This document shows positions 3,533 through 45,746 of a stretch of DNA of 64,000 nt, in pieces. The notes under the pieces were generated by a model. The model made no database searches, had not been told where the DNA came from, and saw only the letters and a program-made list of their open reading frames with translations. Source of the stretch: Tricharina praecox. Taxonomy: Eukaryota. The position numbers and the translations under genes are program-made. The stretch covers positions 310,001-374,000 of the forward strand of contig NW_026250410.1 of NCBI RefSeq assembly GCF_024521635.1. Reading direction: 5' to 3'. Position 1 is the stretch's first letter; each line of letters begins with the position of its first letter.

Positions 3533-5320
3533 GATGTGGTATTGTGGTGGTGACGGTGGTGGTGGAGTTGGACACCTATGTATCGGTAGTAGGTACTTGG
3601 GCGACGTCTATATATGCAGGTTAGATGCATGGTACCATTGGTACTATTCCCGCTTCACCAGGCTCACGTTACCACTCACCAATTTGCAATTAGAGCATCT
3701 GAGGCGGGACAACATCTGGCCGTTATTTTCCATTTTAGATAGATGGACTTGCACTCACTACTACTGCTCTGGATGTTTCCAATCCCCATCGTCACCGTCC
3801 TCGCTCTCGTGCCGTGAGCGATCAATTCCATTGACACACCTACACAGAAGTGAACATTCTAGTGTAGCAGTGCCTACCATAACCGAGAATCAGAAATAAC
3901 TCGTCGTAGAAAATAGGAAACGACACAAAGATCCGGCTCGCCTAGCAATCCCCCTAGGCCCGGTAAACAGAAGATTTAGATACTCCCTTGAAGCCCCTCC
4001 TCGTCTCCAGAGTCCACCTACCGGAGCAGAACCTTACTTCTCCACCACCGCATCGCGAACCATGTGACCATGTCCGCCACACTCAGAAGTTAACCCAAAC
4101 GCCAGTGGCCTAGGTAGTGCACCAACGTCGTCAGTGGTCACAAGTTTTGCGGCGGTCCGGCGGCTCAGCGCGGCAGTTCGTCAACCTCTGCCCTCGGGTG
4201 GTCCACAAGGAACGAGTAATAACAGCATGCGAGCTGGCCAAAAGTCAAATCGAATGATGATGGTATGTACCAAGCACAGCCAATAAGTCGTGCCTCACCA
4301 CCATTACTACTCATAAGCGCAAGGTGAAGCACCACTTACCCTTACACTCGAGTACTCTACATTGAGTGATATCAAAAGCATGCAGATGAGTTCAACGCTA
4401 GCTGGTGGTATTCGAGCCTCACGAGAATCAATGCATTTGTATTTTGAACTGTCATTCTATCTGCGCCGGCCAAATATCTCCTATCACTCGCAATTTAGTC
4501 TCGCCGTAGTTGCCTCTCAACTTTAACTTCTTTCCTCACGCACTAGGCCCCCCCTTGGCCAATAGGTGGTTAACTTTCACTTTATCACAATTCAGCTATG
4601 TAGGTATTTATTTTCACTTTCTCACAATTCAGCCATCCACTCCACTCGTGACTCCACCGCACACAAGTGCAACGATTATCGAGCTGCCAATTTAAAATGC
4701 GCTGGTTTGTTGAGTCCCCTCGCTTCCAGATCACACATGGGACCACTCTCGTCCGCACCACGGGAAGCAACGAGATCATCGCTCAACGGCCGGAAGGAAA
4801 ACATGACGAGTTGTGCTTGCATGCATGAGAGACTTCTCGAATGTCGGGACGAGACACCACTAGAACTAGACCGTGGACCGAGCAATGCGCTGGAACTTAA
4901 GTAGTAGCGGGGGGAGGACCATGTCGTCGAGTCCTGACGTCCGCTCTCGATTTCTCCAGCTTCGATAAAACCGATAAAACCCCCAATTTGTTATAAATAA
5001 GTTTTGAAGTCACTAACCGGCTATATCGAATCCCCCCCTCCCCCGACCCCCCGTAACTACGTTCTCCCGTTTCCGTGCACGGTCCGACCCATACGCACGC
5101 AGCACGCGAATTGCAGGAGCGTTTCATGATGCGTGGCGGCTTGGCTCGAAATCTAACCCCCTATCACATCTTGTTCCTTCCGAAACGCGACGACGACGAA
5201 GGGACAGAAGAGAGTGCCAACAAAACAACAATTACACCCACAACAGCGAATAATCCCTCGTCGTGGAGCTTCTGGATAATCCACACTTTCGCCCACCCAC
5301 CTCCACTACCATCACCGAAG

Positions 5321-6870
5321 ATGCAGGACCTCATTACGATGACCGATTCCGAGTCCAACGGCCGGGAGCTGCAACAACAGCAACAACAACGCACGCACGT
5401 CCAATCCTCCTCCGTGGACGTATCTCGCACCCGTCCCACGTCCCTTCCGGCCACGCAGCACACCCGTGCATCCTCAATCGCCACGTCGTCACCCGCGGCA
5501 AACCGAAACCGGCTCTCGCTCTCGTTCCCGGTGCTACCGCCGGGATTCACTCCTCCGCCGCGCAACTACTCACCAGCCACGCTGTCGCCCTCGGGGCTGA
5601 TCACACCCCCGAACGGCGAGCTCGACCCGGCCGACTCCGCCGCGTTCCTGACCGCCCTCGCCGGCCAGGAGCGCAGGGTCCTCGAGCTCAAGGAGGAGCT
5701 GGCAAAAGCCGAGACGGAGCTCGGGAAGCTTAAGCGGCAATGGGCCACCCACGAGGCGAATAAATCACGCTACGAGATTTCGCGAAACTCCGGCTTGACG
5801 TCGCCTTCGCCGCGCGGGGATGTGTCCGGCTCCGCCTCGTCGCTGGCTTCGCCTACGAGTAGGGAGGAGTTTCAGCGCCGCCAGAGGGCCACGGCTACGG
5901 GGAGGAAGGTGCTGCCCAGCCAGCGCCATCAGCGCACGCTGTCGCTGCTGTCGCCGGAGCGACAGGAGTTCCGCCAGCCGTTTCCACGGCCGAAGGATGT
6001 GGACGATGCCTCTCCGAGGGAGAGGCACCTGATGAGTCCGCTGGAAATGAAGGAGAAAGAGGTGGTCAGGACACAGTCTATGGATCTCCCCACACGACCG
6101 GGGAGCCAAGAAGTCTTCATCAAGACGGGCCAGCAGATCGCCGCCGATTTCCGCGACGGCCTGTGGACCTTCCTCGAAGACCTGAAGCAAGCGGTCGGCG
6201 ACGACATCTCGCGTCCCGCGCCTCCTCCCTCGGCCCGTCCCACCGCAGTCCGCAAATCCTCCTCCAAGGCCTCTTTGCGAAAGGAAAAAACCGGGAGCGC
6301 AGCGCTACAGCGTCGTGCTTCCCGCGAAGGCGGCAAATCCTCCTCCTCCCGCAGGGGAAAGGAACGTGAAGCTCCAGCAGAAGAGTCGCTCATCGACTTT
6401 GGCGAGGACGAGCCCTCTTCCTGCTCAGAATCAAACTTCCGCTGGAGCACCGGCAGCACAGATAGCATCATCTCGCCGCCGTCGCGCGCCTCGACTCCTC
6501 GCACATCCACCAGGTCCGTCCCCGTATCCCCCAACCCATCCCCAATCCCCCAACCCATCCACCCATCCCGCTAACAACCCCCAGCTCCACAACCTCACAA
6601 TACAAGCCCACCGGCGTCTCCACCACCTCCACCACCCCACCCCTCTGGAACACTTTGTCCACAACGCCCTCACAATTCAAAAAGCACGCCAACGCGCTTC
6701 TCACGCAAGTGGAGAAATCCTTCGCAATCCCACAGGAAGGGGGCGAGACGACGCTAGCACGCAGCAACAGCACGGGCTGCGACCACCACCAGCAGATCCG
6801 ACGGCGCGAGGGGATACGCGCTCGCGCGGCCAGCAGGGACGGCGCTGGCGGCGGCGGCGGTGATGCATGA
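5321..6870 (+). CDS. Conserved fungal coiled-coil/low-complexity protein (DUF4048/Tda11-like), 2 exons; TGA stop in readthrough context
   Basis: ATG 5321 (further in-frame ATGs near 5126). Coiled coil FLTALAGQERRVLELKEELAKAETELGKLKRQW and block FIKTGQQIAADFRDGLWTFLEDLKQA. Intron 6514-6584 (GTCCGT...CTAAC...CAG) joins in frame to ORF 6655-6870. Confidence 0.7.
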
Positions 6871-7715
6871 CTAGCCCGCGCACTGCTGGGCGCGAAGGTG
6901 GCGGGCGTGGCCGCGGGAATGAGCTTGGGCGTGGGAATGGGCGTGTTGGTTGGCCTTAGGGTCGGCGGTGTGCTCGGGTTTGCTGGCGGCGTGCAGCATC
7001 ACTTCTATCACTTGGCGATGCCGAAGTTCTCCTCCAGGAGGTAGCGGGTGCTTGATGATACATATTGCTCCTTCCCCCTCCCCTCCCCCAGTTAATCTGA
7101 ATTTCCTTTCCTTCTGCTCATATACCAGTATTTTTCCCTTTTCCCTTTTTCCCTTCTTTCCTTTTCTTTCCTCTCCTAGTAACGCATTTCCTTATGTCCG
7201 GGGTGTTCTGTTCTATTCTATTTTCCTTATGTTTGGGGTGCTCTATTTTTTTTTCTCTTTTCTTTTCCTTTGATCGATGTTTCAACGATGACGAATTGTA
7301 TTATGTATATGCCACATTAGCCAGCCAAGTAGATAACTTAACTTAACTTATGACAGACAATGATAAGCCCGGGATGGGGTATGATTTCACAATATCCTGG
7401 GCTATGTAGGGTGGAGTGGACGGGCGAGAGTGATATCGCGTGATGTAGAGTAGGTACCTCGAGATTGCGAACGCAAATAACTTAGAGGCTGAAATTGAAG
7501 CTGGAATTCCGTTCCGTGGCGTGTAGATAAACAAGGGGAATCAAACCAAATCGGCACCATCGTAACTCGTAACCGCCAAAGAAGAAGCAGAAGAAGCAGA
7601 ATAAGCAGAACAGAAGCCTCAGGTACTCCATCCCATCCCACCCATCCCACCCAACCCATCCGATCCCATACCATCCCGCAAATCAAAGCAAATCAAGCAG
7701 ACCCACGCTATGATG

Positions 7716-7810
7716 CAAAGTAAACAAAGTAAACAAAGTAAACAAAGTAAACAAAGTAAACAAAGTAAACAAAGTAAACAAAGTAAACAAAGTAAACAAA
7801 GTAAACAAAG
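7716..7810. repeat. 9-bp tandem repeat (CAAAGTAAA) x ~10.5
   Basis: Directly visible perfect array between two convergent genes. Confidence 0.95.
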
Positions 7811-7884
7811 CAGACAAAACACGCAAATACGCAAATACGCATACACTTCCATCGCTCATCGCTCACCAGTGTCGCTAGATGATA

Positions 7885-9290
7885 TCACCACCCCGATCCC
7901 AAACCCGGCATACTCTTCCCCTTCCCCTTGCCCTTGCCCTTACCCCCCGCCCTCCCGCCCTCCAACACACCCCTCAACCTATCCTGTGCGCTTTCCGCAG
8001 CGGCTCCATCCCGCTTCCCACCGCCACCAAATAAGACGCTCCAGCTCCCACTATTCGTCCTTGTAGCCACCGTAGCCGGCTTGGTGAGCAAAATGTTATT
8101 CGTAGTAGTGCTGCTGTTGCCATTAGAGTGGGTGAGCGAGACTCCCGTGGCGGTCTGCGACGCGATGGGGAAGTAGGCGCCCTCGCCGGAGCCGGACGAG
8201 GAGGTGGAGTACCGCGAGGCGGGCGGGATGTCGGCGTTCGTTGGGAGGAGTGTCTTGAGGTGGAGATGCGGGGCCGGGAGTGCGTTCGTGCCGCTGCCGC
8301 CGCCCGAGAGGAGGATCTGGCTTGACGAGGAGAGGCGGCGGCGCAGGGGCGGGTATGTTGCTGCGGGGGTTGTAGTGGTGGCGGTGGTGGTGGTGGGCCG
8401 CCGCCCGCTTCCGAAACAGATATTCAGCTCAGCGGCTTTCCCCACCAGCAGCGTGTGCAGCTTTGGGAAGTGGTTGCGGCTCGCGCTGCTCTCTGGGCTG
8501 AGGCGCTCCTGCGGCGGCAGCATCTCGTCGATTGCTAAGAGTGTGGAGATTATCGAGGTGAGCACCGTGTGCGTCTCCTCGGCGGCTTCGGCAAGCGCGT
8601 CGACGTTCTTGAGCGTGGTGTTTTCGCTGGTGAGGCGGTCGGTGCGCGATTTTGTGGTGCGCAGAACGTGCGAGACTAGACCGTCGGTCATGAGAATGCG
8701 GGATTGCAGGCTGGTTTGCGTCGACGTCAGGGAGTCGACGGAGGCCTGGAGGGTGGTGCGGTAGGTTCCGCAGAGGGTGCCGAAGCTGGCGAGGGCGGTG
8801 TTGACTTGGAAGTGATGTGTCAGTCGGGGAATCGGAGAGCGGGAAGATAAGGCGGTATATACCCTCAGGCTCAACAGCCTTTAAAATCCCGTCCCATGAG
8901 AAGTCGTCGACGCTGGGTAATGGCGTATCCATCTCATCCTGTCTCACATTCTTCAGCATCCGGTCCCGCACACTGCTATAGTACACCCGCACACACCTCA
9001 TCAAAAACCTCATCCAGCAGGTCCTCTCTCGGCGGCGAATAGCTTTTGACGATCACGGGCTGGTCCCACTCGGAGCGAGTATGTCTGTGGCCGTACCGAT
9101 GCCTATTCTGCGTATTAACCGTGACAGACGCGCTCCTATGATGCTGTGGTGTTGTTGTTGTTGGCGCAAGCGATAGCAGCACGGCGGTGGGCAGCGAGTG
9201 GCGGCGACTGAGACGGAGGAGCGCCGTGTGGGCGGTTGAAACTCCTTCCAGGACTGAACTGGAGCTGGTGGTGGTGGTTGTAGAGGGCAT
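7885..9290 (-). CDS. BORCS5/Vab2-like coiled-coil protein (BLOC-1-related complex subunit candidate), 3 exons
   Basis: ATG 9290; introns 8996-8939 and 8862-8805. Helical core LPSVDDFSWDGILKAVEPEVNTAL...coiled coil...LLAIDEMLPPQERL resembles the BORCS5 C-terminal L..L..MLP..ERL motif (recalled). Confidence 0.55.
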
Positions 9291-44022: not shown

Positions 44023-45746
44023 ATTTAATCGATCCGACACATCATTCCCTTTGTAATATGTAAATGCTGGATGGAGCGGGGTTGGGGTTGCGGGTCTGGG
44101 GCCGATGGATGGTTTTTTTCTTTTCTTTCTGGGGGGATATCACTGCTTATGCTGTACACGAATTCGCATGTTGTTACGATTACACCTATAACTACGGTGG
44201 CGAGCCAGGGTGGGCACAATAATGAAGATGAAGAAGAAGTAATTAATTTACCGGGCTGTCTTTTTTATTCTCTGTGATGTGATGTGATGTGTTGCCATCG
44301 TTGAAGTCGTGCTTTTTCGCACCTAATCATCAAACTTTTGGCACTCAGCCATCCATCCATCCGCCCAAACATGGGGAAACTGTGGATGTGCGTGAGGAAG
44401 GGTGGGAGTACCTGCGCTGGCGGCGCCCCATACCCCAAACACGCACCCTGGCGTTTGCCAATCGAAGTGTCGTCCACAAAGGTGTGGACGCCACCCCATA
44501 TGTGCGCTATCACGCAGAGAGAGACAAGTTGATAACTATTGACGCCACCACACCACCCACGACTACTACGACCACCACGACCACGACCACGACCACGACC
44601 AGCACCAGCACCACGACAATATGAAACAACAACAGCAGGCTGCAGTGTCTCGGGTGGTACGGGCTGGCCACGGTAGGGTGGTGTGGGGTGGGTTATTGAT
44701 GTCACGGTCGCCCAAAAAGGGTGATGTGCAGTGTGCATGGCATGAGTCGGCCGCTTGGAAGTTGGGAGGTCGCATGCCTCATACTTTAGGTACTTGTCGA
44801 CCTACTGGCCTATCTGCATAAGAAAAGAAGTATGTACATGTGTACATGTGTGCTTGCATACTTCGCCGTGGTCTCCGTAGTCGAGCACCCAAGCACCCCA
44901 GCACCCAAGCACCCAAGGGGTCAACCAGTCGCCATTCTCTCCCGTCCAATCCGCGAACAAGCACTGCTCCCACTGTATTGTACACTACAGTTCAGTTGGT
45001 ACACATACGGTAGACCAGAACAGAGCAGAGTAGACCGGAACAGAGCAGAGCAGAACAGAGCAGAGTATAGAAGCCTATCCAGTATGTCCAGTATGTCCAT
45101 ATATCCATAGGTACAGAGGTACATTGGTACACAGCCAACCATCTCGTGACACGCCGTGATACGCCGTGATCCACTGTGACGTGCGCGCTCGATCACTCAC
45201 TCGATCACTCAGGGCTTGCTGTACCAGAGCGAGTGATGATTTGTGTCTGTCCTGTTTGATGTCTGGTGTCTAGATCATGGCGGCTCGCTCGGTGAAATGG
45301 CTACTACCTGCTGTCTACCTGCTATTTACCATACTGTAAGAGTAGAGAGAGTAACGAGTAACATACCGCAGCTGGTACCGTATTCGGTATTCAGATTCAG
45401 TTTGGGCATGGGTTGGAATTGTGGTCTCCATAGCACCTAATTGAGGTCGTATGCGACAATGAATGGGATTCTCTCTCGCTATTCAAGCTTGGATTCAGAC
45501 GAGGGTGTTGTGTAGTTCCAAGCTCTGGCTGGGATGGGCCTGGAAAAAACTAGTCACTCCGTCACTCCTCTACGCTGAGGTCGCGAGCACCAGGCATGGC
45601 AACACTCGTCACTTCCAATTCACCTTCCATCACTCGCATCCATGACTGTCTACCAATACTACCAACAATAGTATTCTCTCCCTCCGGTTCAAAATCTCCA
45701 CAGAAGTTACATGGAAGTTACATAGAAGTTACAAGCCACATAAAAG

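Follow-up and report, generated by a model that had tools for sequence, protein, structure and literature searches.

We analysed a window of 64,000 nucleotides from the fungus Tricharina praecox (NCBI RefSeq assembly GCF_024521635.1, contig NW_026250410.1, positions 310,001 to 374,000 of the forward strand; coordinates below are those of the window), in which a gene of the DUF4048 family ends at a TGA codon directly adjoined by CTAG and is followed in the same frame by 57 further sense codons. Comparison with relatives suggests that this extension very probably represents coding sequence that is translated and under selection, the UGA being decoded to reach it. Programmed, conserved stop-codon readthrough with a tail attaching a minor isoform to a membrane would be the best explanation overall, and we judge the case for this reading as a whole to be evenly balanced. 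We favour readthrough because the seven bases TGACTAG are invariant where synonymous sites are near saturation and because the segment downstream is subject to purifying selection in the frame of the stop.

Conservation of the UGA-CUAG stop context in relatives

The TGA at 6868-6870 with its directly adjoining CTAG and the frame open to the TAG at 7042-7044 had been reported in a first-pass annotation made from the letters of the window; both are present as claimed, and the 57-aa peptide, LARALLGAKVAGVAAGMSLGVGMGVLVGLRVGGVLGFAGGVQHHFYHLAMPKFSSRR, matches that annotation exactly. The product of the host gene is identical to the annotated 492-aa hypothetical T. praecox protein P0002. Its exon 1 matches Pfam family PF13257 (DUF4048) with an E-value of 6e-20 and 72.6 bits (cutoff 25) over residues 204-376, and PF13257 is likewise present in 120 of the 120 DUF4048 homologs listed. 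The host is an uncharacterised, largely disordered coiled-coil protein whose main open reading frame (ORF) contains no hydrophobic segment (best 17-residue Kyte-Doolittle mean 0.52). Neither exon 2, nor the extension, nor the readthrough product matched any Pfam family at E-values up to 1, and a full-text literature search for 'DUF4048' found no paper.

Of 162 pattern matches obtained by scanning metagenome contigs with conserved exon-2 motifs, five were orthologous loci. Two pairs among them (L001 with L002, L004 with L005) are near-identical, so the five represent three further lineages, or four with the window. Exon 2 identity to the window amounts to 81-83% for L001/L002, 79% for L003 and 52% for L004/L005, and the exon-1 products of the relatives match proteins P0008, P0009 and P0012, the last being close to an annotated Wilcoxina mikolae protein. 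TGACTAG is exact in all five loci and therefore invariant over the four lineages. All loci read GAY GCN TGA CTA G, the wobble positions before the stop being variable (GAT or GAC; GCA, GCC or GCG) and the codon after CTA differing between lineages (GCC, GTC, GAG). CTA accounts for 6.1% of leucine codons in the 15 long ORFs of the window, and the invariance of this rare codon argues for a constraint on the nucleotides themselves.

The orthologous proteins, annotated or predicted, end at the aligned position (...GGGDA, ...SREA, ...DGNA, ...DNQS), which indicates an ancestral stop as opposed to a nonsense mutation peculiar to one strain; no sense codon occupies this position in any ortholog examined. 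Past the stop the frame remains open for 57 codons in the window, 46 in L001/L002, at least 23 in L003, where the contig ends, and 71 in L004/L005, the second stop being a TGA after 46 codons in L001 and after 71 codons in L004. No frameshift interrupts the extension of any relative.

Coding signature of the extension

Ratios of nonsynonymous to synonymous substitution rates (dN/dS) were calculated pairwise by the Nei-Gojobori method. Between the window and L001, which share 30 identical residues over 46 codons, the extension gave a dN/dS of 0.20 (dS 1.1, Fisher p 2.3e-5), with differences at the three codon positions distributed as 13/4/23. The ratio was 0.23 between the window and L003 (p 0.006), 0.37 between the window and L004 (p 0.006), 0.36 between L003 and L004 (p 0.03), 0.45 between L001 and L004 (p 0.03) and 0.34 between L001 and L003 (p 0.08), so that p fell below 0.05 in five of the six lineage pairs, at extension dS values of 0.4-1.6 overall. 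For the 80 codons upstream of the stop, dN/dS was 0.05-0.25 where dS was unsaturated.

When the same extension alignment was read in the +1 and +2 frames, omega ranged from 0.44 to 4.0 with 0-8 stops, nine of the ten frame readings holding stops, and the antisense frames gave omega values of 0.35-5.3. Sense frame 0 is the sole frame of the six that is stop-free in all four lineages. In a frame-free DNA alignment, the gaps inside the extension measure 27 and 3 nt, and those past the second stop 10, 3, 10, 26, 7, 39 and 3 nt, while identity to L001 declines from 0.69 to 0.58. These alignments indicate that purifying selection acts on the extension in the frame of the stop, and the expectation that orthologs would share TGACTAG along with an in-frame extension of dN/dS below 1 was borne out in the four lineages.

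Properties of the element within the window

Taken by themselves, the motif count, the open-frame length and the RNA fold within this one genome are no more than expected by chance. An open frame of 57 codons is unremarkable in DNA of 70% guanine plus cytosine (GC), and other frames, including antisense ones, are open here for 106-176 codons. A second TGACTAG is found on the minus strand at 45550-45556, about 190 nt past the stop of the nearest long ORF and in surroundings that are not coding-like. On the available comparisons, it is the conservation in relatives that raises the feature above chance. The described change in composition behind the extension is real, GC content running from 0.73 to 0.65 over 6825-7049 and from 0.43 to 0.34 past 7050.

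A stem just 3' of the stop had also been proposed. Both arms, GCCCGC (6874-6879) and GCGGGC (6901-6906), occur as described and can pair; the 3' one falls within 27 nt unique to this genome. As a stable fold the stem did not hold up, 6865-6965 having a z of 0.21 and a fold that 109 of 200 shuffles equalled or bettered. The consensus fold of the four lineages reached -5.5 kcal/mol with 8 pairs, and no conserved structure emerged from it. Recoding of the UGA as selenocysteine was considered and rejected, as neither a selenocysteine insertion sequence nor any Rfam match (E up to 1, both strands) was found in 6700-7900.

Transcript evidence across the stop

Runs X1 and X2 had been guessed to be RNA, and a spliced joint shows that they are. 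Record 1 of X1, an assembled contig of 2809 nt, consists of 4800-6509 joined to 6581-7623, and is thus a spliced plus-strand mRNA; the 71-nt GT..AG intron is removed in the RNA contigs of both runs (cut +4). This record retains the stop and the whole extension unspliced and has no letter change listed at 6868-6870. Record 9 of X2 spans 6884-7356 with zero differences, the X2 pieces listed leaving 6803-6883 uncovered. The soil metatranscriptome runs X3 and X4 cover 5584-5901 and 7578-7610 only and are silent on the stop. In the assembled RNA there was no splice bypassing the stop, the 71-nt intron being the sole joint.

A further contig in X1 and X2 matches up to 6865 and then continues in unrelated sequence. 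A splice at 6865 was rejected, there being no GT at 6866, and the contig probably stems from a different transcript in which the GGC-rich run also occurs. The X1 contig begins 54 letters before 4800 (about 4746), so that some 575 nt precede the annotated ATG at 5321; the stretch from about 4746 to 5320 could be either a 5' leader of unusual length or the result of fusion with the transcript of a neighbour.

Composition of the tail and the membrane question

In alignment A3 the extension has a common layout: L-x-R (L-A/V/E-R) from the first codon past the stop, then a stretch of 17-21 residues rich in Gly, Val, Leu and Ala that ends in an invariant V-x-V-G-L-R, and then a basic end rich in His. 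Columns V120, V122, G123, L124 and R125 are invariant over the four lineages. The extension carries a net charge of +6 in the window, compared with +5 in L001 and +10 in L004, and the best 17-residue Kyte-Doolittle mean is 1.93 in the window and 1.83-1.98 in the relatives (the Kyte-Doolittle and Hessa-type scale values used here were not taken from a tool).

The first-pass annotation had further described a glycine zipper, and the window does have Gly at extension residues 12, 16, 20, 24, 28, 32, 36 and 40, eight in a row with period 4, which none of 20000 residue shuffles reached. As a strictly conserved trait, this periodicity was not supported: the eight consecutive glycines of the window correspond to 5 in L001, 5 in L003 and 1 in L004. 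It is thus present in the close lineages and absent from the distant one, and a strict glycine zipper is not the conserved feature. Shuffles reached the run of L001 in 96 of 20000 cases and that of L003 in 26 of 20000. A tandem repeat as the source of the periodicity was discarded, as Tandem Repeats Finder reported no repeat in 6871-7044.

Searches for proteins carrying the extension were made in several ways. Word-based protein searches (8000 candidates scored each) returned only P0002, P0003 and P0004, which cover at most 62% of the query and reach up to the stop; the absence of the extension from such searches is weak evidence. When exon 2 and the extension together served as query, an exhaustive protein search gave three matches, of which P0005 and P0006 are ortholog fragments ending at the stop. 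The third, P0007 (227 aa, E 6.6e-4), spans the stop position and was set aside as an unrelated helical protein with a glycine-rich tail of its own, the similarity being read as compositional; its tail ends ...VAVPRLMSR, resembling the ...LAMPKFSSRR of the window extension, a curious likeness of layout. With the extension as query, a protein atlas gave no usable match.

Table 1. Features of the DUF4048 gene and its putative readthrough extension in the window.
Feature	Position	Strand	Basis or remark
Exon 1	5321..6513	+	ATG to splice donor; holds coiled-coil-like stretch and DUF4048 domain
Intron, sole	6514..6584	+	71 nt, GT..AG; GCTAAC at 6570-6575
Exon 2, coding part	6585..6867	+	ends ...GGGDA; conserved motifs QFKKHANALLTQVEKSF and SNSTGC; translation, ortholog alignment
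Candidate leaky-stop element TGA-CTAG	6868..6874	+	annotated stop 6868-6870, then CTAG context 6871-6874
Putative readthrough extension, 57 codons, in frame	6871..7041	+	open frame; dN/dS; indels; in RNA contig
Hydrophobic Gly/Val/Ala/Leu-rich stretch, candidate membrane segment	6898..6957	+	extension V10-L29, between K9 and R30
Best-conserved extension core VLVGLRVGGVL	6943..6975	+	alignment A3 columns
Basic, His-rich extension end QHHFYHLAMPKFSSRR	6994..7041	+	net charge; SRR/RR end common to L001
Second, terminal stop TAG	7042..7044	+	window sequence; relatives end at TGA instead
3' untranslated region (UTR)	7045..7623	+	X1 contig reach; contig ends at repeat

Proposed readthrough switch and its alternatives

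In the mechanism that we propose, a minority of ribosomes would insert an amino acid at the UGA via a near-cognate tRNA, as in published work on this motif, and would translate 57 more codons to give a minor isoform of about 550 aa beside the main 492-aa form. The added piece would consist of Leu-Ala-Arg, a moderately hydrophobic stretch of 17-21 residues up to VGLR and a basic His/Arg-rich end. This tail would most likely attach the minor isoform to a membrane post-translationally, in the manner of a tail anchor; given a translated extension, we consider it somewhat probable that the tail acts through membrane binding. As a rule, low hydrophobicity together with basic flanks favours the mitochondrial outer or peroxisomal membranes among tail anchors, and the weak hydrophobicity and basic flanks of this tail would favour the same destinations. 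One gene would thereby supply a soluble and a membrane-bound pool. Of the interpretation first put forward for this locus, the comparative test supports the idea of a leaky UGA-CUAG from which an isoform with a longer C-terminus arises, and the stem and the strict GxxxG pattern find no support as conserved traits.

Several observations weigh against this proposal. All four lineages belong to one fungal family, the Pyronemataceae, and three of them are close. Because the frame-0 protein steered the codon alignments behind the dN/dS values, those alignments are biased towards frame 0; agreement with the frame-free DNA alignment is limited to the three close lineages, L004 being misaligned in it. 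TGACTAG is not enriched in the window, with 2 occurrences where shuffles predict 5.25. As RNA evidence we have assembled contigs, which lose rare variants and may have dropped a minor form that is spliced or edited, and record 1 of X1 has one unplaced 1-nt gap within 6581-7623. On the side of the tail, the Hessa-type insertion sum is positive, at +1.1 to +3.7, which makes the stretch marginal as a membrane segment; L004 has an Arg inside the hydrophobic stretch and 45 residues after it (27 in the window), and lacks the period-4 Gly run. AlphaFold2 on the 4-row alignment A3 gave no confident model (mean predicted local distance difference test 50.1, predicted template modelling score 0.13). Finally, no tail of this kind was found in the last 45 residues of the annotated ORFs of the 120 DUF4048 homologs listed.

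Readthrough could also be real and conserved and the tail not be an anchor, acting instead as a degron that tunes dosage, as an oligomerisation or aggregation element, or as a binding peptide, a possibility that we take seriously while considering it rather unlikely. The only moderate hydrophobicity and the positive Hessa-type sums would fit any such tail, and period-4 glycines in three of the four lineages would suit helix-helix packing. For a degron, extracts of PMC10364623 describe the clearance of hydrophobic readthrough products by BAG6-type quality control in animals, and those of PMC13123824 a stop-loss extension of Dbf2, produced by editing, that destabilises the protein in Fusarium. 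The quality-control work cited comes, however, from animals and not from fungi; a generic degron would not require the invariant V.VGLR core or the Arg-flanked layout of the four lineages, and purifying selection acts on the sequence of the extension, beyond its composition. An untranslated region, in which a chance open frame in GC-rich DNA coincides with conservation of an RNA- or DNA-level element, is improbable in our view. It would agree with the long open frames of 106-176 codons in other and antisense frames, with the lack of TGACTAG enrichment, with the conserved islands that exist further downstream too, and with the finding of the extension in no database protein by the searches made. 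Against it stand the codon-position differences of 13/4/23 and the dN/dS of 0.20-0.45, indels that are multiples of 3 only inside the extension, a frame 0 that alone is stop-free in four lineages, and the lack of a conserved RNA structure or Rfam match.

The stop could otherwise be bypassed before translation. Sexual-stage adenosine-to-inosine (A-to-I) editing of UGA to UGG would confine the extended isoform to fruiting bodies; such editing occurs during sexual development in distantly related filamentous ascomycetes ('Pyronema' appears 12 times in the full text of PMC5381528), stop-loss editing is frequent in these fungi according to extracts of PMC11156358, and a stage-specific edit could be hidden by assembled contigs. 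The same extracts report, however, a strong preference for U at -1 and for hairpin loops, hence for UAG and UAA targets (PMC11156358), whereas the A of the UGA here follows a G and no favoured hairpin is present. Editing would also leave the invariance of CUAG and the kept rare CTA codon unexplained, and the covering RNA contig of X1 shows no letter change at 6868-6870; we regard this route as improbable, on a par with an untranslated region. A minor mRNA in which alternative splicing removes the stop and connects exon 2 with the extension is very unlikely. Fungi do use alternative splicing too for C-terminal targeting signals (Freitag 2012, as cited in the part of PMC9549241 available), and rare isoforms are lost from contigs, but the X1 contig covering the stop is unspliced and the only joint in the gene is the 71-nt intron. 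Moreover, no conserved donor lies near the stop (the window reads GGTGATG, and L001 and L004 lack a GT there), and CTAG as an acceptor would shift the frame. Even smaller is the probability that the extension is an independent small ORF translated by reinitiation or from an internal start: the window frame does hold ATG codons (extension M17 and M23), but the 71-codon extension of L004 has no Met, and therefore cannot be a separate AUG-started ORF, and conservation begins at the first codon past the stop (L-A/V/E-R).

Comparison with known readthrough systems

UGA followed by CU, aided by A at +3 and G at +4, is described in extracts of PMC4207609 as the core readthrough signal, UGA CU(A)(G) being sufficient for readthrough in Ustilago maydis and in HeLa cells (PMC4207609), and about 4% of human MDH1 is extended by readthrough according to the available part of PMC5133446. 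In the passages available of PMC4207609 and PMC9549241, fungal UGA-CUAG readthrough is known almost only for the peroxisomal tripeptide behind the stops of metabolic enzymes. These cases of the peroxisomal targeting signal of type 1 (PTS1), Tpi1 and Pgk1 of U. maydis and mammalian MDH1 and LDHB, have the same stop and 3' context as the gene described here and likewise involve a less abundant, lengthened isoform that carries its sorting element at the C-terminus, context and extension being conserved in relatives. They differ in that their short extensions end in the tripeptide, whereas here a hydrophobic and basic tail of 46-71 residues ends in SRR, SRR or TRF; their hosts are metabolic enzymes, whereas the present host is an uncharacterised coiled-coil protein for which readthrough is proposed.

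Membrane helices have been predicted in eight Drosophila readthrough extensions (PMC3840789, in extract) and in eight Arabidopsis readthrough products (PMC9293766, in extract), and these resemble our case in placing a predicted membrane helix in the readthrough extension of an otherwise non-membrane protein. As far as these extracts show, they rest on ribosome profiling and TMHMM, several of the fly PhyloCSF scores being negative, whereas the fungal case described here draws on context conservation and dN/dS. Four mammalian UGA-CUAG readthrough genes (Loughran 2014, PMC4132726, in extract) were likewise detected by a coding signature past the annotated stop, in the context TGA CTA with G at +4 (per the available text of PMC4207609); unlike the tail proposed here, their extensions are not described as membrane anchors in the portions available of PMC4132726. 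With tail-anchored proteins the putative long isoform would share a single hydrophobic stretch near the C-terminus, the lack of a signal peptide and of any other hydrophobic segment, and basic flanks, but its hydrophobicity is marginal, the distance to the C-terminus varies (27 residues in the window versus 45 in L004) and the predicted anchor would be carried by a fraction of molecules only. Among the listed titles and abstracts on readthrough combined with tail-anchored or transmembrane proteins, we found no fungal membrane tail made by readthrough, the supplementary U. maydis TGA CT lists of PMC4207609 being outside this scope.

If translation past the stop is true, a membrane or hydrophobic module joins PTS1 among the known cargoes of readthrough in fungi, current annotation misses a selected coding segment, the extension, which we found in no database protein, and DUF4048, a fungus-wide family, gains a first testable property in the form of a dual soluble and membrane localisation. 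The case also offers a clean example for conservation-based recoding searches in fungi. More tentatively, we suggest as a possibility, itself unlikely to hold in full, that throughout the Pyronemataceae, and possibly in many more Pezizomycotina, a hard-wired UGA-CUAG switch sets a soluble form of DUF4048 proteins against a tail-anchored form self-associating via a glycine-rich helix. Were this so, fungi would have their first demonstrated membrane anchor made by readthrough, and DUF4048 a first functional handle.

Neighbouring observations

Among Pezizomycotina, the C-terminus of annotated DUF4048 proteins is often ...K-K-A or ...K-K-D, placed immediately behind the conserved last motif, so that a broader distribution of extensions is conceivable. 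In Tuber, Morchella and several Dothideomycetes (P0018-P0023, P0042, P0055 and others), the proteins end in ...K-K-A, ...K-N-A or ...K-A-D a short way past the conserved motif EKSL-P. Many of the models P0008-P0017, including the annotated W. mikolae protein P0011 and several proteins derived from metagenomes (compare L004 2915-3000), run into the intron after ...PRTSTR; their stop falls inside the intron, and they consequently lack the conserved last exon.

Hydrophobic N-termini were seen in nine distant DUF4048 homologs and were not used as support, since they look like over-extended gene models. Three of the distant homologs, P0057, P0061 and P0068, share an N-terminal hydrophobic stretch, ...WVSWLKGGLVLRVLGVPIALFAWHLE..., which is either a real membrane segment of that lineage or the product of an over-extended gene model.

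In the 3' UTR, two islands at 7091-7126 and 7305-7330 (...CTGAATTTCC..GCTCATATACC and GTATATGCCACATTAGCCAGCCAAGT) are kept with L001 amid poor alignment. Further downstream, at 7719-7800, at least nine GTAAACAAA units lie between the DUF4048 gene and a convergent minus-strand ORF at 7885-8880, and the very high word depth of this repeat in the RNA runs indicates that it recurs in other transcripts or loci.

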